Both the position numbers and the translations under genes were made by a program. Under the pieces are notes generated by a model that saw nothing but the letters and a program-made list of their open reading frames with translations, was not told the origin of the DNA and did not search any database. From assembly GCA_003971905.1 (NCBI GenBank), contig RSEE01000049.1:310001-374000 (forward strand): DNA of 64,000 bases. Reading direction: 5' to 3'. This document shows positions 2,512 to 62,365 of this stretch, one piece after another. Origin of the DNA: Moniliella sp. 'wahieum' (Eukaryota). Numbering within the stretch: the first letter of the stretch is position 1; the number at the start of each line of letters is the position of its first letter.

Positions 2512-2893
2512 TCTCTATACTGCAACCATATCATTGAAGGGGCTTAAGGCGGGACAAAAAACCGCTGCACCTAAACCGACGCCCGTTCATCCGGCGTGTG
2601 CTGCTTGTTTGTGCCAATACCGTTTAAGGAACCAGGGGAATCGCCAGGAGATCAGGTCGATTAGGACGCTCTGGTACCCGCAATCCGTTCCCATACCCAA
2701 GGAAGCGCGTGTGGATGCGGATGATCGATGAACGTGGTAGACATCTCCGAACGGTGAACCATCTTTATTGAGAGTCAGTAGTCAAATTCTTTCAGTGCCC
2801 AAGCATCTTGCCTGCTGTCTTGGTAGTATAGTATGCTCGCGTCGTCAAACCAAGGGGGGAAACGAACGGGCCGTGGGCCCGGTGGCCTCCTCG
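2512..2893 (+). mobile_element. Non-autonomous Helitron-like element, copy A (internally deleted relative to copy B)
   Basis: Homology to 30138-30881 begins exactly at A|TCTCTAT. The 3' end has a CGGGCC-GTG-GGCCCG hairpin (2867-2881) followed by CTCG|T. No TSD or TIR. Confidence 0.75.
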
Positions 2894-4106
2894 TGATGAA
2901 TGATTGTTGATCGGTATCAAGCGGGTGCGATCGGACAACGAATCAGTGTTGCGAAGGGGAATGATGAATGAGAGTGAGCTGCATAGTGAGCACCACAAGC
3001 GTCCGAACGGGGAGGGTGTAGGGGTTGAATAAACCGGAGTTTCATCGCCACCCGCACCACCCATATCTTCTCCCAGGAGTGCGTATGCACCGGCACAGGC
3101 GAGCAAGTCACACTTATCGTTACTTGCCACACACCAAGAGGGTACAATCAGTGATCCCCCTCATCGGCCTCGTCGATCATATGGCCATTCTCGTGACACG
3201 CGAGTGGCCACGGAGAAGCGAAGGTCGGCGGTGGAGGTGGGTGCCTGGCGTGGGCATGACGCTCGGGAGCATGAGCGAAGCGGCGCGCATCAAAAAATAG
3301 CCGAGCGCTCAGGCTGCGGCGAGCTGAGTCAGTGTGCTGAGTGTGCTGATAGGGTTATGGTGGCCGATGATGCCAAGGGTGATTGATGACTCGATGACTA
3401 GGTTTAAGCTGTAAGCCTAACCAGGCGCCTTTGAACTTTGCTTATCGATTCCCACTACTCGGTTCTGATCTTCTGGCTTGGCTGCCGATCGCAAAAAAAG
3501 ACTGCGCATGGGTATTGGCACAGGGGGAGAGGATTAGGCAGGCGCTCAGCGGCCCAAGCCAATGCCCGGTGGCACTGTCAGGCGCAGACTGGGCAGATGC
3601 ACGGATGCGCAATCGCAGCTGCGGCCAAAAGAAAGACAACAGCCAACGAAACCGCATGGTCCGCTCCTCCGAACGCCCGCCCGCTGCGTGCGCTGTCTGC
3701 TCGCGCCGATCCCCCCAGGCATGGGGCCAGTGGGGCTGCGTGCACCCTGGGCCCCCGATGCATGATGCATCCTGCATGCCGCCCAGCCAGCACCAGGTGA
3801 GTCACCCCGAGGCACTGCCCAGCCCCTGGCCGCCCCCTTGCCGTAGCCGCCGCAGAGCCTGAAACGCACAGCGCTGTTACATGTTATCGATTATCGGTTA
3901 CCGGTTACCGGCCGACCAATTAACGTCAGCATTGTCGATCGATTATCGCTTGTCGCTTCCTCGGTTCATTACCCATTCCTTGTCAAGCACCTCGGCTTTC
4001 CTCGTAACCCCCATCCCACCTCGCCGCCCCCCGCCTGCCACCCACGTTGAGGCCGCCGTTTGCCTTCCGTGTGCCCTCCCGCCACCACCACCTTGCCCTG
4101 CTTGCC

Positions 4107-24430: not shown

Positions 24431-26556
24431 TCACTGGTAGCTCTGTGAACGCGGCTGCGCATTTCCTTCAGTTAGTGCTCCTGTGGTCGTTTTCCCCTCC
24501 GTTATCTCTCCACGACCGACACCGCTCCCACTCGAAACTTCATTTAGCCTCGCGTTCGTGTTGATTAGCAGCTCCCTAGCTCTTGCAGTCAGTAGGGGCC
24601 ATCTGATTCTGGCCAGTTTGCAGGTCCCCTGCTTGATCTGTAGTGCACGCACTATAAGAACGATATCTGTTACAACAAAAGACCTCCTTGAGGGATAAAA
24701 TTGTAGGAAGCAGCAGGACAGAGATACACGTGATACAAAGAAGTGAAGAGTGAAGTCGCAAAGGCTTCCCCGACCAAAGGGTGACAGTATGCTGAGGAAA
24801 CCAAGGAAATAAATGGAGCTGAGGGTTGGTATGCTCTGTACACCCACGCCTCCAAGTAGGAGAGTGTGGGCAGACAAGGTCATGCCGAGGGTGGGTTGGA
24901 CATTAAGGTTCGGGCACAAGGGATGCTTGTGGACTGCTCCGTCCCGATGGCATCCCGCCTGAGCCACGAGCCAAGCACGGGCTTTTTGGACCCCATCCAT
25001 CCTTGAAGGTGGGAAGGAGTGACCGGGGAGGGAAGCGATGGGCCGTGCACGTTTGGCCGGCGGTTCTGGATCGGGATCTGAACCGTGTTTGGGCTCCGAA
25101 GCGAGCGTTTGGATCACGTGTGCCATCTCATCGGGTGCGATCAAGTCAAATGGTGAGTCACTGGCACGCGCAGTGCTAGGTGAAACGGGGTAGTTGGGCA
25201 GGGCAAAGCCCGGGTCCAAGTTGAATTCCTTGGCAAGCGACGGATCTTTCTTACCTACAGCGGGGTCGTCTTGTGGTGGTGCAAAAGCTGCAATAGAGTT
25301 TTTTTCAAGGTTAGTATATTATTGTTTTAGGAATGGAAAAAAAGTTTAGAGGGTGTATTGCGGAATGCTTACCTTGATCTGATCCGCGTCGCAACACCCC
25401 GCTTTGTACCATAACTTCTGACAAACGACGAATGCAGCCGACGAGCACTCTAAGCATTTGGAACATATCCCCAATATCGCGCACAGAGGCGATACCTCCT
25501 TCCTCGGCATTGAGTAGCTCGGGATGGGCTTGGATCGCCTGCATGCGTTCTTGCACCCGGACGAGCCAGGCAGCGTCAAATGAGTTTTGAGGAGGGATGT
25601 GGCCGAGGAGAAGGAGACACATGTATCCGCTGGTGGCAGTTTGGGACGAAGGCCATGCCTTGTCCTCTAGCTGGACATCTTCCGGAGAGTAGATCGGCAA
25701 GGGTAGCGCAAGAACTCGATTTGGAGTGTGCGGAAGATTCGGAAGAGGAGAGTTTGAATCGTCAATTCGACGGGCCGCGTCGTGGCTTCGATACGGTGGA
25801 AGAAGGTGCTCATATCATACCGCGGCATAGGTTCTGACGGTGCCAGCGTCGGATCTTGAACGGTATGCAGCACAGGGGAGCGCGGGGCGGACGATACAGG
25901 AGAAGGGCTGTCTTCTAGTGAGGCACGATTCATCATCTCCGATACGGATCCTATCCGTGAGCCCTTGGGGGAAGAAGGCTTGTGGTAGAGGGAAAAGGTG
26001 GAGACGGGAGGCAGTAAATGACGGTCGCCAATGCGGCGGGGCAACCTGTCAGAGGCAGGACGGGGTAAAGAAGAGCGACGCGACGGCGGGAGCGACGTGT
26101 TGGGTGTTGACGAAGGAGCCATGTCCATGGAGAAGGTGCTACCCCGCTTGCGGATCGGGCGTGGTCCGGTGGCAGTGGGGGGGACAGCATTGTAGGTGCT
26201 CCTCAGTGATGGCGGTGGGACAGGGCCCGACGGATTGCTGCCTACGTTTGAGGGAGGGTGGGCTGCGGACGCGGGGGCATTGGGCAGGTGGGGACAGGCG
26301 GTGTGACTGGGTGAGCCGCCCTGAGCAGTGTCGTGCAAGGAGTAAGCAGCTAGGCTGGGCGTGGAAAACTTGTCCGCCATGCGCTGCGGGAGGGGGGCAG
26401 GGGGGCTGGGGGGAAATATGCTGGATCGCACACATGAGGTGGCGGTCTGGTGTGAGGATGGTGGTGGTCGGGAGGGAAGGGGACAAGGGGTCTGGTGCGA
26501 GATGAAGGATACATATGCATTGAGGGGGGGAGGGTCATGTCATCGTCATTAGGCAT
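24431..26556 (-). CDS. Hypothetical protein (Pro/Ser-rich N-terminus, helical core, NLS-like PPAKRARP)
   Basis: Chain of overlapping minus-strand ORFs. A canonical intron at 25372-25288 (GTAAGC..ACTAAC..TGCAG) joins two of them in frame. No family recognised; the 3' end is uncertain. Confidence 0.55.
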
Positions 26557-26949
26557 GAAAAAGCTCGAAGAAGCATTAGGATCAGTATCATGTACTGGCT
26601 AGCCAACAGCTTCAGCCAGCGCCCACGGCCGTACGAACAGGCCATTTCTATAGGGCCGCGCGCGACCTACCGCACAGCGGCAGCATGTGCGGGCCGTCTA
26701 TTAGACATGGTGCATTATGTAGCGAAGACCTTGCCACGGCGGGCCATTCCGGGAAGACAGCCGGGAGGCACAGCTGGCCACATCGCGGGCGTCGCGCATA
26801 CGGACGGCAACCAGCGCTGCTTACGCGCTTACGCGCTACGCTCCCTGGGGGGGGCGCAGCCGTACCAGGCCGTACCCGTACGGCGCGGACCGGCGCGTAT
26901 CCCAGGAGGTGTCAGGGTGGGTTGATCGTGGGTGGACGAAAATATGAAT

Positions 26950-29900
26950 GGCCAATCGCCGTTGATCGATGATCATCGACCACGCGCACGTACTAGCCAT
27001 GTCCGCGGACCTGATGCCCACGGCCTCACAGCGCTGGAAGGCTTCTATCACAATTGGCACCACCTTGGTATCCAATTGTGGCACCAGCACTCAGCCATGG
27101 CTCAGCGGCCTCAGGGCCTCAGCGCCTCCCCTCCAATTCTGCCGGTATCCGCGATATCCCCTACAGGGTGGATATCATCTTCTCTGACGCTTGACGTCGA
27201 GAAGGGGTGGGCATATGTAGTCGCCGTTCGGGCAGCGACTAGTGACTAGCAACGCGTGACGAGCTAGTGATGCATGAGGGCGACTAGGTGACTCTGCAAG
27301 TGACCGGTGAGTGCCGGTGATCCGGCCGGTGACCCGGCGACCACGACGCCGATCATCGATCAGTCTGCAAGGATTAATGATCGTAATCCCTACCGACTAA
27401 TACACACGCTCAACTTCAACCAACGCTTAGCGCTTAGGCTAAGCGCTAAGCGCTAAAAATGAATTAATAATTAAATTTTTATTTTTATCTTCGTGATCAT
27501 CCATCATCCATCACCGATCGTGCTGGCGTACGCGTTGTTTGTGTACAGGTAGGTGTACAAGTGTACTTGTGTACCTGTGGGGGAAACCTCGATCACGGAA
27601 CCAGTATCACGTCCCCTCAGGCCTCAGGCCTCACCCGCCTGAGGCCTCGGACCAGGCACCGAGGCCTCATGAGATCTGAGATCTCCCTATTTGCTACTGT
27701 AGAGAGGAGGGTAAAAAAGGTGGGTCCCTGTCATGCAGGTCATGCAGCTCGTCAAATTCATTTCTACTTGGTCTCCTCGTCTACTCATAAAAAAATGTGG
27801 GAAACGCGTCTGGTCTGCCACTACTGCCACTGACGACGTAAGGCGCTCAGCGCTCACCAGTGAGTAGTGAGTACTCTCAGCGCGGCCAGCCCAGGATATC
27901 GGCGGTATGATTTTGCCTCTCCACTGGCGTGGAACGGTGGAACGGGTGGCAAAGGTGGCGAGCAGGCAGAGAGGAAGCCCCAGTAAACCGGGCCGTAAGC
28001 CCGGTGGTCCCCTAGTGCCGTATTCCTTTAAATTTGCACAAAACTCCCACACTGCACTTCTGTTGTGGTTTTAGACAAAGAAACGTTTTCAGCTCCCTCA
28101 CAGGCTAGTCTCTCTACTACCCTCCCAGCTCTCACATCTCCTTTTTCTCGTTCTTTACGCGGTCTCTAATATAGTATTCGTTTCCCTTCAAACGGGGCTT
28201 GCTGTTGACAACTTTTATTGAGGCCTTCTCGCACATTTTCCCTCTTCTTTGCCTTAAGTTGTCCGGCGGCTGTGTTGCTATCATAGTCCCGTGGGTCACT
28301 AGCTGCACTGTTGCACTCGTGTGCACTCTCTTCTCAATTTTCTCACATTCTCAGAGATGATCACATCTCTCCTCCTTCAGCTTCATGCTTCACGCGTCAC
28401 GCGCCAACACGGATCACTATATTGATCCTATCTATCCTATCTCCAATGCTCAGTGCGCTCAGTGACCAGTGCTCCTCAGTGCTCAGTGACTAGTGAGCAG
28501 TGCTCAGTACTCAGTAACTCAGTACTCACGCTCACGGTGCACAGACAAAACCATACATACGGTTCTAGTTCCTTTTCCCGAAAGACCTCTCTGAAGGTCC
28601 CAGCTTCACCTATCTTTATCTTTAATTACCATATGGCAGGACCCATCAAAACGTGCCAACAACCCTACTGCCCCCCGACCTATACGCACGAACGTAGCAG
28701 AGCCTATATGGAGAAAAGTGGAGAGTGCGGGGCAACCGATAACCGTTAACCGGTAGCCGGTAATTCGGGTAAGCACAATGCTATAATCGACAAAGGACCC
28801 TACTGTGTTGCATGTTATACCACCGTCCCAACAGGTAACAGTACTATAGTGTAGTCACTCGCCGTCACTAGTCACTGTCACTGTCATGTCCATGTCATTG
28901 GAATATCTTATGTGCTGAGCCTCAGCGCTGTGAGGCGTGAGGTCACGCCTAAGGGCGTGAGGTCACGCCTAAGGGCGTGAGGAGGCCTGAGCATGAGGCC
29001 AGGCAACCACGTTACGTTCACTGTTTACTATAGTCATTTATTCAGTAGATAGCGTGAAAAGGGCAGTGGACAACTGTTTGATGTGTTATCAATAACCAGT
29101 GGGACCGTTACTGATGGATGTTTTGCCTACTACTCAGGGGTAGATGACAGGCGATAGATGTATAGTGGCAGGGAGATAGGTTGATGGTGGGGAAGATAGA
29201 GCACGTAAAGCTTAAAGCCTTCTTCAGCTACAAAAGTATATAGACGTTCCATGCTATGTATCCATCCGGCTTGAGATCCTTCTGAGAGCTTGAAGCTTGA
29301 TATCCTTGAAGCTTGAAGCTCAAGCTTTTTGAGACTTGAGACTTGAGAGTCCATCGGAAGAAGCGAAAGAGCGTGTCATCCTGCCAATTAAATGATGTCA
29401 AGGCCCACGATGACTCGATGACAAGCATACGCCGGACTAACTGAGCCTGAGCGCACAAGTTTATATGTACAACGCGTCGGGTCATAGTGAACTTTTGTTG
29501 GATGTGTGGTAACAGCACGGTATATGTGGCAACTTATACTAGCGACGTCTTATTCACTCCCCTATGGAGACCTCAATGGATGCTGAGGCGCTGAGGGCGC
29601 TGAGGCTAGTAGTGAAGCAAAGATGGATAGGATAGTTGCGTAGGCGATCGATTGCGAGGGCGAAAGATGAGCGCTCAGGCTGAGCATTGGTAGTCGGAGG
29701 CACCTACATAGAGGAGAAAATTATTGGTCGCTGAGCTGAGGCGCTGAGGCTCAGCGCTCACCGGCACCGTGAGCGGCCACCAGTCTCTCTGCTCCCAAGT
29801 CACTGGCTCGGATACTTACGTGACGCGCTTGACGCGTGACGCGTATCCACGCGCTCGCCGCATCAAATGCCGCATTGGATCCCATGTCACAGTCGGCGTA

Positions 29901-30050
29901 GTCTCCGCGGAGTCCCGGGGGTTAATCACTCACTACTCAGCTAATCACTCTCGTCACTAGTCACGTACTAGTCACTACGCCACTTCGGTATAGTCACTAA
30001 TGACCAACGAGATCGATGAAAGACCAACAGAAAAGTGCTCCGCGAGAGCC
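26950..30050. repeat. Gene-free tract dense in TNA-centred 7-bp periodic palindromic micro-repeats
   Basis: e.g. TTA gcgc TTA..TAA gcgc TAA gcgc TAA (27427-27456), TCA ggcc TCA ggcc TCA (27617-27633), TGA agct TGA (about 29291-29316). Confidence 0.85.
27682..28015 (+). mobile_element. Non-autonomous Helitron-like element, copy D
   Basis: The 3' ~90 bp is homologous to 30770-30881 (GCGTGGAACGGTGGAACGG..). Hairpin ACCGGGC-CGTAA-GCCCGGT (27987-28005), then CTAG|T. The 5' end at A|TCTCCCTAT is tentative. Confidence 0.6.
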
Positions 30051-30137
30051 TGCTCGCTCAGGCCATTCCAGACCGGTTCCTTATAAAGACGGTGCTAAGA
30101 TGTTCCTGGTAACCGCAATACTATATCCAGTCGTCCA

Positions 30138-30881
30138 TCTCTCTATGCTAACCATATCATTGACAGAGCTTAAGGCTAGGACAAAGAAGCGCACAACGCC
30201 TAAACCGACCCGTTCATCTTGCGTATGCTGCTTGGTAGCGCCAACCCCGCTTAAGGAACCAGTAGGGGAATCGCCAGGAGATCAGGACCCTCTGGTACCC
30301 GCCATCCGTTCCCATACCCGAGGTAGCGCGTGTGGATACGGATGAACGTGGTAGGCATCCGAGCGAGAAACCATTTCCATTGAGAGTCAGTACTCAATAG
30401 TCAAAACCTGCCAGTGCACAAGCATCTTTCCCGCTGTCTTGGTGCCGTAGTATCCTCGCGTCGTCAAGACCAGGGGGAAAAACGGCTCTTGGGTGCGTCA
30501 AGTGCCCAGGACCTGCCGTCCATCCTCCCGAATCTGGTCCCGGTTCCGCTCGACGCACTTGCGCAAGTTGAGCGTGAGGCCTGGCGTGTCGTCTTCCAAA
30601 ATCTCCGCATGTCTTGTATAGGTACGGCATCACCAGGTGCCCCGGCGGCAGCTCCTTTTCCAACTTCTCCAGTGTTGGCCGCACCGCGAGATGAAGAAGA
30701 AAAAGGGGGCGAGGGGATCGCCCTGCGAACGCTATCTACCGATATAACGCCCCAGCGTGGAAGGGTTTCAGCGTGGAACGGTGGAACGGTGGACCGGTGG
30801 CACGGTGGTTACGGTTGCGACGCAGCACCAAGCTGGGGCGACGCCCCAGCTGACCGGGCCGTAGGCCCGATGGTCTCCTCG
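30138..30881 (+). mobile_element. Non-autonomous Helitron-like element, copy B (longest)
   Basis: A|TCTCTCTAT 5' end. About 340 bp co-linear with 2512-2860. Subterminal hairpins AGCTGGGGCG-A-CGCCCCAGCT (30831-30851) and CGGGCC-GTA-GGCCCG (30855-30869). End CTCG|T. Confidence 0.78.
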
Positions 30882-30882
30882 T

Positions 30883-31135
30883 GAGCTTTTAAGGCCGGGA
30901 CGAAGAAACGCTGCGCTTAAAACCGAGCCGCTCATCCGGCGTGTGTTGCTTGTTGGCGCCAAATCCGTTTAATAGAGGGAACTATTAGGAGAGTCGTCAC
31001 AGCAAATGAGGACCCTCTGGTGCCCCCCCAACCGTTCCCACACCCGAGGTAACAGCGCGTGTGGATACATATGAACATGGTAGACATCCGAGCAGTGGTG
31101 AACCACAGCTCCATTGAGACTCTGTATAGTCAAAG
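30883..31135 (+). mobile_element. Degenerate partial copy C of the same Helitron-like family, abutting copy B
   Basis: Co-linear with 30166-30410 (e.g. TCATCCGGCGTGTG, CCGTTCCCA.ACCCGAGGT, GCGCGTGTGGATAC, ATAGTCAAA). Lacks the first ~28 bp. Confidence 0.7.
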
Positions 31136-32240
31136 ACTGGTATAAAAATGAACATGGTCAGTCGTCCATTTACTGCTAATACCGGCTGTGTATAGTGTCA
31201 TTCCAGCATCTTCTTCAAATCGTGAGCTCCATGTGGTCTTCGATCCTGCTGCTGAGAGACGGGAATGGAAACACCCCGGGACGGATCACAACTGTGATTT
31301 TATGTCTGTGTTTTACCGGTTACCGGGGCTCCGAGGGCCGTTCTCGATCAACGAACACCAAGATCACCTCTCTAAGCCATACTGATAGACTTGGTCTTCT
31401 CAGATCTCATCCGAGGAATTGACCGCGCTGAGAGGCTGAGCGCTGCGCTGAGTGCGCTGAGTCCGGATTCGATCATGTGTTGTTCGATCGGGCCCCAGAC
31501 CAGTATGGCGCCCGACGCCATGATGCATGATCCCTGCCTCTTCTTTTCTCTGCTGGGCCTATAGTCCCACATCCTGTCTCTGAAAAACTGCCACCGCATC
31601 ACAGCTTTGCGATCCAACAGACACGCTGGCAGACGTAGGCCAATACTGTGCAGTGCCATAGAAACCTTTTGCTTTGTGCGATGTATATAGTGCTGACTGT
31701 GCACGGGTGAAGAGCGAAGCTCCATCTACTGCAGGAAGAGGCTGAGGGGCGGGACCAGATGAGTATATAGAAGGAGGCGGTGGGGTTTGCTTTCTTGAAA
31801 GTGCCGGATTGAAGCTGTACTAATGAGATGTGAGCGCGAGCTGTGTGGGTGGTTACACTTTATTTTGGCTGTGTGTAAACAAAACGTGGCTGGGCTCTCC
31901 GCCGAGCGGGTGTACTTTAGAGTCTCTCGGGCGCTGGCGAGCTTGATGAGCTTGATGGAACTGGTAAAATGAGAGGGATTGTGGGGTTTTTACATTAGGC
32001 CGAGGCTGAGTGCGGCGAAGGCTTAATTTCTGAGACCGGGAGGCGCTGGGGCAGGCACAGCGCCAGTCTGCGCCCGCTCGCATACCGATGCGCGCTGGCC
32101 AGTGGCCTCGTGCTGGCGATTTAACCACTCCACCATGGAAGGCCGGTGGGCTGCGAAAACTTTCTTGTCTCCACCCTGACCCCACTCTCTGCAACCACAT
32201 CATCGTCCATCATCCACCGCGCCCAGGGCTCCATCGCCTT

Positions 32241-33643
32241 ATGCACTACTGGTCCTACACCGTTGTTGCGGGCCTCGTTGCTCTGACTGGCGCAACCACC
32301 GCTGCTGCCGCTGTACAGGCCGGCTTCACCAATAGCACCATCACCCTCTCCGACGCTACTGGCTCCGGCACCGCGTCCTCCCTCTCCCAACATGGTATCG
32401 CCCCCAATGGCTGGGCGTGGGACTTGTCTGCCCCCACTGCCCCCACGTCCGTCTCCAGGCGGGGTATGATTCGACGTGCTGCCACCCATTCGGCTGAAGA
32501 CTGGGTCAAGGAAAACCTCAACCTGTACAATGGCCGGTTTGCTGCCAACCCCGGCAACCTGCTCTTCACCTCCGATCCAGCCAGCTCCAGCTCGGGGAAC
32601 AGTAGCCAAGTCCTCTCTGTCACCTATGGCGCCAATTCGTACGGCCTTCACTCTAATCCCCCGGTGGCACCGCATTCTACCCTCAGCCTTTCCTTAGCAA
32701 TACGAGTGGTATATCAAATACCGACACGCCCTACCTGGTGGCCTCTCACACTGCTGGGCAAACCAACGCATCCGATACATCGCGTCCCCAACTCGCGCTT
32801 ACCTACTCTGTCTACTTTCCCCCGGATTTTGATTTTGTCAGGGCGGTAAGTTGCCCGGCTTGTATTCATCTGTTGGTGCGATCAGCCTTTCCTCCATCAA
32901 TGCCTCCACCTCGAGCTGTGAGGGGGGGTCCCTTGATGGTACCGGTACCTCTTGTTGGTCCGCTCGAGTGATGTGGCGCGCAGGTGGCCAAGGGGAGATC
33001 TACGTTTACATCCCACAACACTTGAGTGGGGGTACAAGCTTTGCCCACCCAAAAAGGCGACGGCCAAAGGCACCAGCATCATTTGCAATTCAGACTATGG
33101 CATCTCTCTGGGGCGCGGCTCCTTTACTTTCCAGAAGGGTAGCTGGACCAACCTTGCGCTCTACGTCCAGATCAACCAGCCGAATGTTGCCAATGGAGTC
33201 ATTGAGCTCTATGTCAACGGTGCCTCCACTCCAGCAGCTTCACTCAGTGGTGTCGCCTTCCGCACCGCCACTGTCAATGCCGGATCGACAACCCCATCCA
33301 ACCATATGGCCTCCCATGTACGCCGAGACGATTGGGACACTAATGGCCAAACATGGGTGGACAAGATCATGTTTACTTCATTCTTTGGTGGATCTTCATC
33401 AGATTGGGCGACGCCCACTGCAACCCAAACCTATTTTAAAGATGTCGCAGTAAGTACAGTCCCTTTTACGCCTTTAACCCTTGAGATCCTTTCGCTGACT
33501 CTTCTAAGCTGTTTGCGGGAGAGGCTTTCTCTTCTGCTGAAGGCAAATCCTTCACTCCTAGCCCAGCTCCTCGCCTGATCAGCACTTCCTCCGTTTGGAT
33601 CAACCTACTCATTGTGACGATGGCGATGGGAATCCTACTCTAA
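32241..33643 (+). CDS. Polysaccharide lyase family 14 (alginate/glucuronan lyase-like), secreted, possibly GPI-anchored
   Basis: Signal peptide. YSVYFPPDFDFVR(G)GKLPGLY, CWSARVMWRAGGQGEIYVY, SDYGISLGRGSFTF..GSW, FTSFFGGSSSDWATP. Intron 33450-33508. Last exon ends in a hydrophobic tail VWINLLIVTMAMGILL*. Confidence 0.9.
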
Positions 33644-44244: not shown

Positions 44245-44324
44245 GGCCTCTTGGCGCAGCGGTAGCGCGTGAGATTCAGTTCCTGGCTTCCTCAAGGTCA
44301 TCCGTTCAAATCGGGTAGGGGTCA
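44245..44324 (+). tRNA. tRNA-Trp-like gene with short intron; anticodon as written is CAG (CCA if one C was dropped)
   Basis: Acceptor stem GGCCTCT/AGGGGTC+A. D-arm GCGC-AGCGGTA-GCGC. T-arm ATCCG-TTCAAAT-CGGGT. Followed by a T6 Pol III terminator. The body resembles eukaryotic tRNA-Trp. Confidence 0.85.
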
Positions 44325-46179
44325 TCTTTTTTGCGTCCTCCCAAATTTCTTGTTTACCACTCTTCTGCTTAAATAGAGCCGTCTTCGGGCGTCCCCCGGC
44401 CTTTGAGTCAACGATACTCAGCATTTCATTGTCCACCATTCATAACACTAGCCATGAGTAAGCATACATAATAGTCACGTTCAACATTGGTTTTCTCTCA
44501 GTCTGTTGTGGTGACGACGGCACGCTTGCAGTGTGCTATATATGCCAACCGCCAAACCAAAAACTGCCAAGATGATGCCAAAAGATGATGAAAACAGAGT
44601 CTCATCGCTATGTCTGACACACCGGTTGGGAAAGTGAGAAATATACATAACACATATAACTGATGGAGCAATAATGGAGGGAATAGGCTGCTGAAGCGAG
44701 CCGTCTTGAACCACACGCAGTACTCTCTGATTTTTGTCTTTTCTGACCTCTCTCGGTTAGTCAAGACAGATGGATTGTCGAAGATCGTTCCGTCTGAATC
44801 GCTATAACCACACGCAGCTTGCATGATGCTCAGAAACTTCTTTCACGGTCTATAATGGTCGAAATATGGGCACAGCCTTTTGTTCCCTCCGTCGAACAAC
44901 AAAAACATCCCACAAGCCTTCTCTTTTCTTTCTTGTGGGCACACAACTACATGCTATTCGCACACAGATGGCACCATGGACACACTACAATACTACCGTG
45001 GCACGACTTGATGGCTCATCGCTCATCGGCTGCACGATTCGAGCTCCTTCATCAACAGTGCTTCGGTAACTATAGTAACTCTTCACATAATTTTGGATGT
45101 CGTGCGGTGGAAAATGAATAATGGTGCCACCATGGAACTAAGAATTGAACGCAGGACTGAACGCAGGGCTGCTAATGAACGTAAAACTGTGGATGAAGTT
45201 TGCACCAATGGAAACTGAGTGCACTAGGTTCACTATGAGGCCGGGAGGATGGAGAGTATAACACTCATAGATATATTTTGCTCATAAGAACTGTGTGAAA
45301 GAATCGGCTGAGGGCAGTGCACATGCAGGATGATCGATGATCTAACTGAGCGCTTTAACAATTTTATACTCGCAAATCCTCATTCACGCCGTGGATACAG
45401 ATTGTGGTGTGACGAGGAGACCACCAACAACGAAAGAGAACAGATAGAACAGAGGGATAAAGGGAAGTAGCTTGTGCGGCAGCGCGTGGCATCGAGAATG
45501 GCCCCGTGTTTGAGACCACGGTGCAAAAGAACAAGTCGTCCGTTCGCCATGCAGAGAGAGAGTACGGTGGTATGGTCCCCGTTAGCGGATAAGATATTCC
45601 AGCGATGTGGCCGATATAGCCATGGAAGTGTTGCCACATCATGCATCACTCCTCACAATCTCCTAAAGGAAAGGCCGATGGCCAGAAATGGGATTCATCA
45701 GTTCACTATCAAGTATCCGAGTACCGACGATGACCACTCATTCAGTACAGGCAACTCCTCATGCTCTTAGTCGTCTTTCTACTCCCTGCCTAGTCCACCA
45801 GCTCCCGTCCTCAGCTCTTCGTTCCTCAGTCCTCCCAGTCCGTGTGTGTCTTCCCCGTGCCACGTCGAAGCCCAGCTCAGTTCACCCGCTTGTGATACTG
45901 CCTACAGCCACGCCCCCAGTCCCAGTCAGTTCCAGTTTAGCAGCGCAGGTCCTCCGCTGCCTCATCCCTTTCCTGTACCACGAATGCTTCAGACGCGCTA
46001 CTGCGCCCAAGCCGGTGCTACGCAGCTTTGTCACATGCACCGCATCTGCACAGCCGCCTCTTTCTGCTATACGCCGAGAGGCCTTTTCTAGTCCCTAGCT
46101 CCGCTCGGATCCACAAATCAGCTCAAGCGCATAACTACCGTGAGTCGACCTTCCGTAATTAGGGGATTGAACCCCGTAC

Positions 46180-49100
46180 AACTATTTCCTGGGTGAGCGG
46201 TGAGCGCTGAGCCTCAGCCCCCTGGCGGGGGGCCCGCCCGTGACATTTTACCCGATTCACCCAGTGATGGAGACAGTTGGATGGGTGGAAGGTAGACACA
46301 CGGGACACGTCAAAACGCACCACGGATGGTGAGTTGTGTAGACGTATACTTGGTGGCGCGAGGGGCCGAGGTTGTGATGAATGCTGGGTGCTGGGGGATG
46401 GTTGGTGGTAGTGCTAAGCATGTTACATGATGTCTTTCATTATGCTACGTTGCTCCTGCCAACCGTGACGCGCTGCATATCCTCGGCTAAAGCCAACGCC
46501 GATGAGCAAGCGGCGCAGGGAAGCCCTGACCGTGATCGGTGGCCGGACTGGGTACTGGTTTGTGATGTGCGACATGTGACCGGTGATCTCAGGCAGAGAA
46601 CTGTGAGGTAGTGAGACAAGGCTCACTCAGGTCCAACGTCCGGCTCGAGCAGGTACCTACCCTCGGACCAACCCTCAGGCCCTGAGACTCCTCAGGCCTG
46701 AGGCCCGATGCATGATGTCTGATGCACCTGATGATACAAATGTAAACATCCTGTGCCTGAGTACCTGAATACACCCTATCGAGTGGGGCAAAAGGATCTC
46801 TGTGCTGCTTTGCTCCGTCGCTCAGTATACTGAACTCAGTATGCCGGTCCTTCGGCGCATTTTCGGGATTTCCAGGTTCAAGTGAAGCTTAGGGTTATTA
46901 ATGTGGACAGAAAGTGCTAGCGAGTCACCCGGTCGACCCGAACACCCCGGTCACCGGTCACCGCGCCCGAACAGCCAAAGTGACGTGTGACGTGTGACGT
47001 GTGATCGATTATCGATTCTCGAGATTATCACCGGCACCAATCATCTGAACGATGTCGATGTTCCTTTCGTAATAGGTAGCCTCTCCGGCCTCAGACTGGG
47101 GCCTCAGGCCCCTCAGGCTACCTCAGAGTGAGCTTCAGGCTGAAGCTTGAGTAGCGCTGAACGCCTGAGCCTAAGCCAGCTGGCTAGCTCAAGCTCAAGG
47201 GTCAAAAGCTCTCAGGTCAGAGCCAGCTTCAAGCTCTCAGATCTCGCCAGCTTCAAGCCATCAGATCTCGCCAGCTTCAAGCGCCGCTGTCACGGAAATC
47301 ATTAATCAAGCTCAAGCTCAAGTGGCCTCTTCCTGAGATGTCACATGTCACATAGGAAGCGGCCCCTTCCGGAGACGTCACATGCTTACTTCCGGTGCTG
47401 TGGAACAGGCCTATACAGTTCAAGTGCGGCACTAGAGTGACGAGGTATGTGACCATGTGACGCAGGTGACTTTAGTGACTCGTGCAACGAGCACCTACCC
47501 AATACCGTCCTCATTTTCAGGAGCGTCACATAACTCCTTACCGGGTTACATATTCATGTCACATGTCACCATGTCACCGGTCCCGCCGGCTTTCCGACAA
47601 AAAAAACCACTCTCTGGTCTAAGATCTGATGCAGATTATCAACAGTTTCCAGATCTCAGAGGCCTGTACATACACGTTATATGGCCATCTATACCGTGAA
47701 AAACGTCCAAAGTTCGTAAGTGACTAGTAGTGACATCAAGAGGATGATCTGGTGTCGCATCTACTCTCTTGCCCGCTCTGCGCGCACCAAGCTCCGAGAG
47801 ATGTCGTATCTCAGCCTGAAAGCGCTAAAGTTCACCTGCTCAGCCACTCAGCTACGTCCGGTTCGCTCATCAGTGCTACTTCCGTCAGCTTATTGCTAAC
47901 AGAATGATTTGGTGCAGGGTACACACGGGTGTCTAGACAGTTGTGGGTGCGAAGCGTGAAGCTGTGAGGCTGTAGAGCTTCAAGTGAAGGCACATGTTGC
48001 AGCATAGAGTGAGTATACGGACGAGATGATCACTACACGGACTCCGTGGACGTATAGCGTATACGCCTGAGGTTTTTACATTATCCATCAAGAGAAAATG
48101 ACACATAAGATGTTAACGTGATCCACGGTGTGTGGACTTTCATCCCATTGGGGGACCTGGCAAGGGGATGGTCTAATTCTGCTCAACGTTCGATCGGCGA
48201 ATATACTTTCAGCCCCGATGGAGAGCTTCATAAGAAGTGCCCTAGTGCTCTATCCAGGAACATTATGACGAGTCCCCCACAAACGATAGCCAAAGCTCGT
48301 TCATGTTGCCGTTACGTATTACTTGTTACACTCAATGAAAAAAAGGTGATGAAAGAGGATCATCCTCCCGAGGTTGTGTGGAGACGGTTACATGTTACAT
48401 GTAACCGATTATACGACCGCTGTGTTGATGGCACCATGGGAGAGTGTGACATGTCAGTCTCAGTAAGTATATCCCTCATCCGAGTCTCACCAAAGTATCG
48501 GGGATACTACAGTTACAGCTGTGCGCGCCCCTGAGGCTCAGGGCGCTCAGGCCTCAGGCCTGATGGGCCTGATCGATGTCTGATGATCGATGAACCTTGA
48601 GCGGCTGAGCGCTGAGCCTCAGCTACACTCGGCCGTTGCACTGATGCGTGGCACAATACTCTCAAAGGATTAAGGACTGGAGGATGCAATAATATATGCG
48701 GAAAAATCGGAAGAACCCCCTAAATCAAAGGTTCATGCTCACATGCGTCATGAAGGGAAGCCTAGCGAAGCTCGAAGCTTGAAGCCCCCTGAGGCCCTCA
48801 CCTGAGGCCTGGCCTGAGTTACGAAGCTTAAGGCCTGAGGCTGGAAGCTTGAAGCTTAAAGTGACTGAATATAGGCCAGGTGATACATGATGCATGACGT
48901 CTTGTGGGGGCCCGAGGCAGTGGAAAAGATCTGTGGGGCTGAGGCGCTGCGTCGCTTATGAGGCTCTGGATGAGCGCTCAGCTCAGGCTGAGCCCTGAAG
49001 GTGAGGGGCCTGCGCTCAGACCCAGGGATCAAGCACTGTGTACTGATGCGTTGAAGCTCTCTCTGAGAGATCTGAGATCTGTGAGATCTGTGAGATCTGT

Positions 49101-49900
49101 GAGATCTGAGATCTGAGATCTGAGAGCTAATACTGTATAAGGCCAGGCTCAGACCCTCAGGCCCCGGCCTCAGGTGAGGTCTCAGTACCTCAGTACTCAA
49201 GTTCCCAATATCAATACAACTGTAAACAGTACGTACTCAGGTACCCACGGCAGCCACTAAGTACTAATGCCACTAGTTACTAGTTCCTGGTGCTCCGCGC
49301 CATGGCGAAGTCACTTCGATCACTTGTGATCAATGATCAGCTTGTTTTTGCTGGATGGTGCTTTTCATTAACGTTTAACGTTTACTAGTTACTGGTTTTA
49401 CCGGTTACTTGAAGAAGGGGAAATATCAATGAGGCCTGAGGCCCGAGGCCGCCCGAGGCCGCCTGAGGCCTGAGGGCTTGAGCCTGATAAGGCACCATAT
49501 TTCAGACCTCAGAGGGTGTATAGTACCCTAAGGGCCTCAGTATCAGCCATTCCATACGCATATAATTAATAATTCCTTCAAGCTTCATCTGCTTCAGTTG
49601 TCTGAGGAGCGTGTGCGGTGTGGCCTGCTCGTCAAATCTATACAGCACTATGACACCTTCGGCCGTTTGAGGGGTCTTGGTCTTGACGCATGAAAAGCTT
49701 GAAGCTTGATTAACTTGATCATGATCAACAGCGATCTGTATATCCATCCGGCCCAGTATTAATAGTTGCCATCACAAACGCTACAGGTGGCGGCGTTCAA
49801 CTTGACATGCAAGACCGTCCAATCCCGATAGTTTCGCTCCAGGGCCTCAGGACCTGGCGTGATAGTTCCATATCTGTATCTGTCGGTCAAGTGACATGTG
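46180..49900. repeat. Second gene-free tract dense in TNA-centred 7/9-bp periodic palindromic micro-repeats
   Basis: e.g. TGA cgtg TGA cgtg TGA cgtg TGA tcga TTA tcga (46981-47015), TTA catg TTA catg TAA (48388-48404), TTA acgt TTA acgt TTA ctag TTA (49368-49391). Confidence 0.85.
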
Positions 49901-50066
49901 TTCATCGTGCAGTCTTTGAAGCGGGACGGACGGACCCCATTCGCAGCATATATAAGTAATACCCCTCACACTAAGAAGTGTCCCTGGCTAGAAGCTGCCT
50001 CCTCACAGCAACCACGACCACCCAAAGAGTGTACCCTCCTTTCCATCCTTCTTGGAAGGTTCCTCT

Positions 50067-54286: not shown

Positions 54287-55705
54287 ATGAACGCCACACC
54301 GGCGCTTGCGCCGGCGTTGACGCACGAGTCGGCACCCCTCCCACCGGCAGCCGCACCGCCGCCATTGGCTCCCTTACCGCCTCCTTCCTCGAGCGCCCAA
54401 CGGCCAAGCAGCGCCTCTACCCGCCTCCTCCACAGCACCGACAACCGACTTCCAGCCCTTCTGTCAGCACCTGACCCGCGCCGAATGCGATGCCACCCGT
54501 CGCGCAGGAGGGGGCGGGATCCTCTGGTCGCATCCTGCGCCAAAATTCACTTTGTGCCCGACCCCATGCCACAGACCGACCCATCGTTGGGCACTGCTCT
54601 TACCTCTCTACCTGCCACCGGAGGAAAACCTGCCGCTACCTCCACTTTCGCATTGAGCGGCCCCCAGATCCTTCGGCGTCGGGTTGCTCCTGTGTTTCAA
54701 TGGGAGGCACCCTACCCACCTGATTCCTTCCGTTCTCAGTACTCGAGCGTTCTTCGCCCGCGTGAAGCGCTGACCCAGTCCGGGCTGACGGTGGCTGCTC
54801 CCCTGCCCCACGCCTGCGCACACCGAAACCGATACCATCTCGATTGATGTCCCCGAAGAATTGGAGGCGCTGACACGGGCCACCCCGCCCGCTCAATGGA
54901 TCAATTGCGATGTGCGGGACTTTGAACTGGGCCGCGTGCTGGGCGAGGGACTGTGGGACGTTGTGATGCTCGACCCGCCGTGGGACATCCACATGAGTTT
55001 GCCGTATGGCGTCCTATCTGATGCCCAGCTGCTCGACCTACAGCTAGGCCAGTTACAAAAACCCGGGGGGTTGCTCTTCATTTGGGTTACAGGCCGGGCG
55101 ATGGACATTGCACGGGATTGCCTGGCTGGTTGGGGGTATGCCCGGATCGACGAGATTGTCGGATCAAGACAGGCCACACTCAGCGCTGGTTCGCACCGGA
55201 CGCACGGGGCATTGGATCAACCATTCCAAGGAACACTGTTTGGTCGCCATCAAGCTGGGGGAGGATACCAAAACCCCAGAAGACCAAGCCGACGAGGCGG
55301 ACAACGGCCTGAATGCAACACCCAATTCGGGCCGGCCGGAGCTGTGCGGATGTGGTTCAGCTGGGCAGAGCCACACGTCCACTCTACCGCCGTGCCGGGG
55401 GGACGGCCACGACCGGCACTGCCGCCGGGTACGCTGGGGGGAAGTGGTGCCGTCGTGGGCCGCTGCGTGGGATGAGTGCGGATGCGCTGGTGTCCGAGGT
55501 GAGGGATACGTCGCGCAAGCCCGACGAGCTGTACGGGATGATTGAGCGGCTGGCGCCGGGCGGGCGCAAGCTGGAGCTGTTTGGCCGGCGGCACAATCTG
55601 CGCCCGGGGTGGCTGACGCTGGGCAACCAGATCCGCTCGACGCACGTGCTCGACCCGGACTTGGCGCGGCGGCTGCGGCGTGCGCAGATGGAGGGGGGGG
55701 TGTAG
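54287..55705 (+). CDS. IME4: mRNA m6A methyltransferase catalytic subunit (MT-A70 family, METTL3/Ime4)
   Basis: CCCH-finger remnant (C.KIHF..TDPSLGHCSYLSTCHR.KTCRYLHF). PPAQWINCDVR, catalytic DPPW (DPPWDIHMSLPYG), FIWVTGRAM, RTGRTGHWINHSKEHCLV, TSRKPDELYGMIERLAPGGRKLELFGR.HN.RPGWLTLGNQ. Confidence 0.95.
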
Positions 55706-61461: not shown

Positions 61462-61868
61462 CTTGCTCCCGTCTTCTGTTCGCTTACTGTCTTGTTCGTT
61501 TATCCGTGATGTCGATGACTGAGTATTGAGCATTGAGCATTGAGCATTGATTATCTACTAGCGTCATTCCTATTTTCTCCTGTTGCTTGCTCCTATTGCT
61601 CCTACCTCCTGTTCGTTCCTCCTCATGGCACGAGGGCACAGGCACTGGCACTCCGATCCAGTACCGAGTACCCGTGGTGCATGTGCATGTGGTGCCCCTG
61701 CCTATGCGTGTGCCCCTGCCTATGATGGCATGGCGTGCCACCCAGTATACACATTTCTTTGTCGTCCTACCCTTGCTGCCATTCCCATTCGTCTCTCTTT
61801 CTCCTGTCGTTGTTGCATCCTCTTTAGGGGCGGGAAGGAACAAGGTCTCCATAGCAAATGTCTGCGTG

Positions 61869-62365
61869 TGCTTTGCTTTGCTTTGCTTTGCTTTGCTTTG
61901 CTTTGCTTTGCTTTGCTTTGCTTTGCTTGCTTTGCTTTGCTTTGCTTTGCTTTGCTTTGCTGCTTTGCTTTGCTTTGCTTTGCTTGCTTGCTTTGCTTTG
62001 CTTTGCTTTGCTTGCTTTGCTTTGCTTTGCTTTGCTTTGCTTTGCTTTGCTTTGCTTTGCTTGCTTTGCTTTGCTTTGCTTGCTTTGCTTTGCTTTGCTT
62101 GCTTTGCTTTGCTTTGCTTGTTTGCTTTGCTTTGCTTTTGCTTTGCTTTGCTTTGCTTGCTTGCTTTGCTTTGCTTTGCTTTGCTTTGCTTTGCTTGCTT
62201 TGCTTTGCTTTGCTTGCTTTGCTTGTTGCTTTGCTTGCTTTTGCTTTGCTTGCTTTGCTTGCTTTGCTTTGCTTTGCTTTGCTTTGCTTTGCTTTGCTTT
62301 GCTTTGCTTTGCTTTGCTTTGCTTTGCTTTGCTTTGCTTGCTTTGCTTTGCTTTGCTTTGCTTTG
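61869..62365. repeat. (CTTTG)n pentanucleotide microsatellite, ~500 bp
   Basis: Direct reading; interspersed CTTG 4-mers. Confidence 0.99.

Follow-up and report, generated by a model that had tools for sequence, protein, structure and literature searches.

The TNA scar rule is real: it is exact, and among the loci compared it is specific to this genome. In the window, by which is meant the whole 64-kb stretch of DNA analysed, TNA triplets and their neighbouring bases are found duplicated, with two intervening bases that form the reverse complement of the neighbouring flank. The exact +7 form of the scar is ab-TNA-b'a'-ab-TNA or its mirror. These scars are probably footprints left by the excision of a cut-and-paste DNA transposon whose target duplication is the 7-bp NN-TNA-NN, a reading of the sequence patterns that is given a probability of roughly 0.7.

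All expected values are taken from order-2 Markov resamples in local 400–500-bp blocks. The 64-kb window contains 65 exact +7 scars where 0.4 are expected, and other anchors give between 0 and 7. This count bears out the 7-bp NN-TNA-NN unit that an earlier note had proposed. The strict scars total 87 at 64 loci and comprise 65 of +7, 10 of +8 and 12 of +9. Targets of 5, 9 and 11 bp are rejected, as the corresponding arm lengths around TNA (1, 3 and 4) are found 3, 0 and 1 times against 4.8, 0.1 and 0.0 expected. Identical TNA triplets four bases apart enclose a palindrome in 76 of 146 pairs (expected 4.4), and the palindrome counts of same-spaced pairs for the 15 non-TNA anchors are between 3 and 15. 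Exact 7+2+7 duplications centred on TNA number 14 against 0.6 expected. Twelve of these 14 have a reverse-complement spacer, compared with 4 of 138 off TNA.

Palindromes overall show no general excess in the window, and a generic palindrome excess is rejected as the cause. The palindromic cores in use are 14 of the 16 possible. This diversity rules out a fixed element remnant as the source of the spacer. Scars with one mismatch number 52 and 51 against 5.1 expected, about ten times background. Their mismatches are spread over all seven positions and 70 of the 103 are transversions; given this proportion, the one-mismatch scars are not claimed as an age series.

Ordinary slippage could also duplicate a heptamer, with the palindromes arising through chance or selection. 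Informative sites are those where, at each of the two spacer positions, the base expected from slippage differs from the one expected from the rule. At the 51 informative TNA sites, 29 spacers are palindromic (0.2 expected), 8 are plain and 14 are neither. At the 409 informative non-TNA sites, which include coding sequence and simple repeats, 12 are palindromic, 161 are plain and 236 are neither. The reversed order of palindromic and plain spacers at TNA and elsewhere speaks against slippage, and the variety of cores speaks against a single selected binding word. As an account of the scars, slippage is therefore considered highly improbable. The same comparison upholds the claim, made in the earlier note, that the spacer is copied from the flank in reverse-complement form.

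The scars are unevenly distributed. Five non-coding blocks, which cover 14.8 kb or 23% of the window, contain 78 of the 87 strict scars; the blocks were hand-picked after viewing the data and the concentration figure is descriptive. When checked by hand, strict scars in Pfam-matched stretches number 0. The control set, metagenome loci that carry relatives of Nop58 (80 of 80; some are short and mostly coding), has 8 strict scars in 661 kb. The same filter gives 86 scars in the 64 kb of the window, a density about 110-fold higher than in the 80 Nop58 loci. The 21 kb surrounding the window's own Nop58 contain 37 scars. One control locus (L045, 19.8 kb) has two +9 strict matches, at 274 and 6453, which may be due to chance or slippage.

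The Pfam matches in the window include serine carboxypeptidase, an RRM protein, polysaccharide lyase 14, Nop58, an HMG box, MT-A70 and cytochrome b5. Among proteins of 173–552 residues, the range searched, the Nop58 frame has its best named relatives in Malassezia cuniculi (69%) and Sporisorium reilianum (68%); Rhodotorula and Agaricomycetes rank lower. These relatives point to a smut-related basidiomycete host. The polysaccharide lyase family 14 gene lies at 32833–33575, and the MT-A70 methyltransferase gene (54789–55702) is spread over three frames. At 1251–1816 there is a coding-like tandem repeat rich in Gly, Ser, Asn and Tyr; its periods are 54 and 108 bp, and Pfam gives no match for it. 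ARAGORN, run with bacterial settings, places a tRNA Leu(CAG) gene at 44245–44324, adjoining the second scar-dense block of Table 1; the call is unsure and the gene may hold an intron. A GCTTT microsatellite of about 500 bp with variant units (61869–62365) is the likely source of the excess at periods 5, 10 and 15 in the spacing scan.

Table 1. Positions of the repeat copies, scar sites, arrays and scar-dense blocks in the window.
Feature	Position	Strand	Basis or remark
Repeat copy A, non-coding, with a Helitron-like hairpin at its 3' end	2512..2895	+	2512–2864 in the repeat comparison; alignment
Repeat copy B	30140..30484	+	87% identity to A over 227 ungapped columns
Repeat copy C	30889..31134	+	84% to A, 82.5% to B; reference for indel polarity
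Site 1, exact +7 scar: ab-TNA, then ab reverse-complemented, then ab-TNA-cd	2720..2733 in A	+	short allele B 30341–30347, also C
Site 2, +9 scar: full 7-mer twice, 2-nt palindromic spacer	2650..2665 in A	+	short allele B 30280–30286, also C
Site 3, +7 scar, mirror type, one G>A	30385..30398 in B	+	agTCAgt-ac-TCAat
Site 3, short allele agTCAgt	2773..2779 in A	+	pairs with B scar
Mixed TTA array, cores catg, tcga, tcgg, ccgg, ccgg	3875..3911	+	one left-type and two different right-type scars, one register
Plain 7-bp duplication, then palindromic scar, common TGA target	46192..46212	+	array scan
Long TGA array mixing +9 and +7 units; probably scar plus slippage	49062..49125	+	array scan
Mixed TTA array, cores acgt, acgt, ctag	49368..49393	+	array scan
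Scar-dense block	26550..32000	.	no Pfam match above cut-off
Scar-dense block	44330..49990	.	no Pfam match above cut-off

In the window repeat comparison, copies A, B and C are a single non-coding repeat. In the alignment of A and B, the indels longer than 3 nt are exactly sites 1–3 (3/3), and five others are 1–3 nt long. The three indels from which the pattern was first proposed are all found, in place, in the sequence and in this alignment. Site 3 falls beyond 2650–2733, the interval originally given for the pattern. At site 1, copy A reads gaTGA-tc-gaTGAac and copy B reads gaTGAac, an exact fit to the rule. At site 2, copy A reads gaTCAgg-tc-gaTTAgg, with one C>T change in the second copy of the 7-mer.

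Hand counts of mismatches at sites 1, 2 and 3 give 0, 1 and 1 for the rule; a reading as plain tandem duplication gives 1, 2 and 2. In favour of slippage, each site is thus within one or two mismatches of a tandem duplication. When perfect tandem duplications are simulated across B, the rule fits with one mismatch or fewer at 44 of 315 positions for 7 nt and at 42 of 315 for 9 nt. Random insertion in B gives such a fit in about 0.1% of cases or less. Because 13–14% of tandem duplications in B fit loosely, which is a further point for slippage, sites 1–3 suggest the rule without proving it.

At sites 1 and 2, copy C aligns gap-free with the short allele. Its stretch at site 3 exceeds that of A by 2 nt and falls short of that of B by 5 nt, and because of this intermediate length the polarity of the site is ambiguous. 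Judged against copy C, which is only slightly more distant from A and B than these are from each other, the long allele is probably derived at two of the three sites. This agrees with the earlier expectation that the long alleles are derived, with the third site unpolarised.

The Helitron label for the repeat that hosts these sites is plausible. The hallmark of Helitrons is a 3' hairpin followed by CTRR. Hairpins are present near the 3' ends of the Helitron-like repeats (z of -2.9, -1.1 and -1.7), and a related repeat end at 27985–28020 has a hairpin followed by CTAG and then T. The 3' ends near A and B are degenerate with respect to the hairpin-plus-CTRR hallmark. No RepHel domain was found by Pfam in the scanned frames of the window. 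Two more Helitron-like 3' ends (27929–28020 and 30789–30888) share a GTGGAACG repeat and a GC-rich hairpin. The second of these is followed directly by copy C, in a head-to-tail arrangement. A scan of metagenome contigs with the shared core of the repeat gave 0 matches.

Many scars are found in arrays. Chains of at least three identical TNA triplets at 7–9-nt spacing number 46 against 10 expected, and three chains have at least two different palindromic cores. In the mixed TTA array at 3877, the first core mirrors the left flank and the last core mirrors the right flank. The core tcga in this array mirrors the start of the adjacent altered unit, and this counts against slippage because slippage would give a direct copy of the mutated unit. 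The array may be read as repeated hits at one site, the alternative being a point change in a slipped copy. Homogeneous runs are equally well explained by slippage after a first scar as by re-hits, and some of these arrays, for example 49062–49125, look slippage-amplified, which favours slippage. The earlier idea that scars regenerate their targets and so give rise to arrays is thus supported by the apparent re-hits at 3877, and the homogeneous runs do not set it apart from slippage. Slippage as the origin of the first scar is largely refuted; it stands as an amplifier. Two TGA heptamer arrays (61520–61550 and 46980–47004) have the non-palindromic cores gcat and cgtg and may be either slipped plain duplications or decayed scars.

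The geometry of the joints was modelled as the left copy plus i bases followed by j bases plus the right copy, and three hairpin positions were compared. With a flush hairpin on a 7-bp duplication, classes (0,4) and (4,0) contain 40 and 38 joints, the plain class (2,2) contains 21, and the +8 and +9 classes contain 3–9 each. All enriched classes have an expectation of 0.5 or less. Even-centred classes are enriched more than 100-fold, which is what a flush flank hairpin would predict, as judged from the products. The unambiguous +7 joints comprise 23 left, 18 right, 5 plain and 3 mixed joints, and the unambiguous longer joints comprise 5 of +8 and 9 of +9; the left, right, plain, +8 and +9 classes among them are far above the resamples.

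The middle base of the two triplets is the same in 76 cases and complementary in 9. The 7-mer is therefore repeated directly, and an inverted duplication is ruled out. Five sites with a complementary middle base may represent longer P tracts or substitutions. Almost every joint retains exactly two palindromic bases, on one side. By analogy, this fits hairpin opening near the tip, as by Artemis. Artemis is described as opening hairpins at the apex or 2–4 nt off it, and RAG signal ends as blunt (PMC13041557).

Flank hairpins and P nucleotides are known from hAT, Transib, RAG and MULE (PMC5499845, PMC5873905). In the earlier note the scars were called a hairpin-type footprint. That description fits a flush, RAG/Transib-like hairpin and does not extend, in its details, to a likeness with hAT. 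With the offset hairpin of hAT on 7 bp, no class is enriched; on 9 bp, the enriched classes are all common to the flush model. A canonical hAT with Ac/Hermes chemistry, such as hAT7, is thus very unlikely as the agent, although the hAT7 elements of rust fungi share with the scars a 7-bp duplication and a basidiomycete host and group with Ac and Tam3 (PMC12730594). The available text of PMC12730594 gives neither a footprint nor a target consensus for hAT7. The usual hAT duplication is 8 bp and the 7 bp found here match only hAT7. The excision of hAT elements does leave P nucleotides in fungi, and the Ac/Ds footprints described in Candida albicans resemble the present scars in their fungal host, in the combination of target duplication with short P nucleotides, and in having few dominant footprints (PMC5873905). 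In Ac/Ds, however, the centre of the palindrome is the complement of the border base (PMC5873905), and the scars here are even-centred.

Insertion followed by excision would account for these joints in four steps. The element would insert at ab-TNA-cd with a 7-nt stagger, by which the 7-mer is duplicated. On excision, the transposase would close each flank into a hairpin exactly at the element border. A host nuclease would then open one hairpin 2 nt off its tip, which would give a 4-nt palindrome, and the other end would be opened at the tip or trimmed by 1–2 nt. End joining would produce +9, +8 or, most often, +7. There is an equally good route to +7, in which each hairpin would be opened 3 nt from its tip and the two 6-nt overhangs would pair through the T and A of TNA. 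Trimming and overhang pairing would leave products that are alike. With two TNA targets and 12 bp of 7-periodic DNA present after every scar, re-hits as well as slippage would lengthen scars to arrays.

The very high density, with 78 strict scars in 14.8 kb, is a point against the footprint reading, as are the unpolarised site 3 and the failure of the window scans to find an element or a transposase domain. The uniformity of the scars is also unusual because excisions in rice are mostly messy; the present patterns count tidy events only. In the rice data, 8 of 94 excisions are perfect and most have deletions or filler (PMC4423477).

A host or domesticated nuclease, or a quirk of repair, might instead make the scars without an element ever being at the site. 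Such an origin would fit scars that are very dense and uniform, a pattern that is almost absent from the 80 other Nop58 loci, and a window in which no element was found. A domesticated hAT transposase that forms flank hairpins, Kat1, is also known (PMC4763223). This origin is nonetheless unlikely. The +9 scars need the whole 7-mer as duplex at both ends before the hairpins form, and insertion followed by excision supplies that. A staggered cut with fill-in would yield plain duplications only, which are seen at just 8 of the 51 informative TNA sites. Fold-back of a 7-nt overhang, or a hairpinned strand-transfer intermediate, would invert the 7-mer, contrary to the counts of middle bases. Scars made by a free hairpin-forming nuclease without any insertion are considered quite unlikely.

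In the window, inverted ends with 3-, 5-, 7- or 9-bp TNA-centred duplications form only weak pairs, mostly between scar arrays. Inverted ends with any 6–10-bp duplication likewise form only weak pairs in the window scan, mostly joining scar arrays. The earlier note had looked to TIR elements flanked by 7-bp NNTNANN TSDs, and none that is convincing is present in the 64-kb window. Pairs of CA..TG with a 7-bp TNA duplication number 14 in the window against 12.0 by chance, which is no excess. The candidate terminus CTCACTG is found at six sites in the window, two of them after NNTNANN and none of them paired. Pfam scans of 227 of the 232 long frames and of all 149 short frames found no transposase domain and no KDZ domain; five repeat-derived long frames were omitted, the short frames come from eight selected regions, and decayed or intron-rich genes could be missed by such a scan. 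The choice of a transposon over a free nuclease is indirect because neither an element nor a transposase is present in the window.

The likeliest agent of excision is a CMCT (EnSpm/Transib-like) or Kyakuja-type element, ahead of a canonical hAT. The fuller proposal is tentative and held at less than even odds: an undescribed EnSpm/Transib-like or Kyakuja-like lineage, with a 7-bp NN-TNA-NN duplication, flush hairpins and repeated excision, would be the main source of the heptamer arrays. A literature search, thin on subscription journals and Repbase Reports, found no published description of the TNA-plus-palindrome pattern, and no literature on hairpin chemistry for EnSpm or Kyakuja was found.

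If the footprint reading is true, the genome is a large natural archive in which fungal hairpin opening and end joining can be followed base by base. It would also point, indirectly, to RAG-like chemistry in a group of transposons for which the literature search found no description of the excision chemistry. In addition, the scars would represent a non-slippage route to tandem repeats, in which each scar rebuilds its own target. The rule is exact enough for counting in any assembly, and its spread across smut relatives is testable.

The scar class and the 7-bp duplication each have precedent among known systems. The earlier note had treated a 7-bp duplication as unprecedented, and this is not so: in Kojima's survey, hAT7 elements of rusts and Kyakuja elements of Laccaria both have 7-bp duplications (PMC12730594). 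In the same survey, the duplication of Zisupton and Dileera is 8 bp and that of the CMCT clade is 2–5 bp. CNEST is described as duplicating TA and KDZ1 as duplicating 8 bp (PMC12810828). The term "Ustilaginomycotina" is absent from the available text of PMC12730594.

Kyakuja, a KDZ element of Agaricomycotina, shares the 7-bp duplication (PMC12730594). Its ends are CA..TG without inverted repeats, and an inverted-repeat scan would miss it (PMC12730594). Unlike what Kyakuja would lead one to expect, CA..TG pairs are not in excess in the window. Its excision chemistry is not described in the available text of PMC12730594. The CMCT clade (EnSpm, Plavaka, ESTA and CNEST) is similar in a different respect, as its transposases have RAG1/Transib motifs, which would fit flush hairpins (PMC12730594, PMC12810828). 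The described members of this clade differ from the scars in duplicating 2–5 bp rather than 7 bp (PMC12730594). CMCT/EnSpm-like CA..TG inverted ends and a Tnp2-type transposase were sought in the window by end scans and Pfam, and none were found.

The PIF/Harbinger elements are described with a 0–3-bp duplication (PMC12730594), at TNA/TWA targets, and in the present scars the copied unit reaches two bases further into each flank. The 10-bp repeats of Ustilago maydis, known here from a brief description, are also small intergenic repeats of a smut that have been suggested to be transposon footprints (PMC4081816). They differ from the scars in their length.

V(D)J coding joints and Transib/RAG excision are similar to the TNA scars in flank hairpins, blunt element-side ends and short palindromes from opening off the tip (PMC13041557, PMC5499845). 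The target duplication of Transib and RAG is 5 bp (PMC1131882), unlike the 7-bp TNA-centred duplication here, where the 5-bp arm length of 1 is seen 3 times against 4.8 expected. The present joints are also far more uniform than V(D)J/RAG joints and are without untemplated filler in the counted classes. On the sequence patterns, the scars fail hAT on geometry, and they fail Transib, the described CMCT families and PIF/Harbinger on duplication length. By analogy, the TNA scar is like a RAG/Transib coding-end joint placed on a 7-bp duplication.
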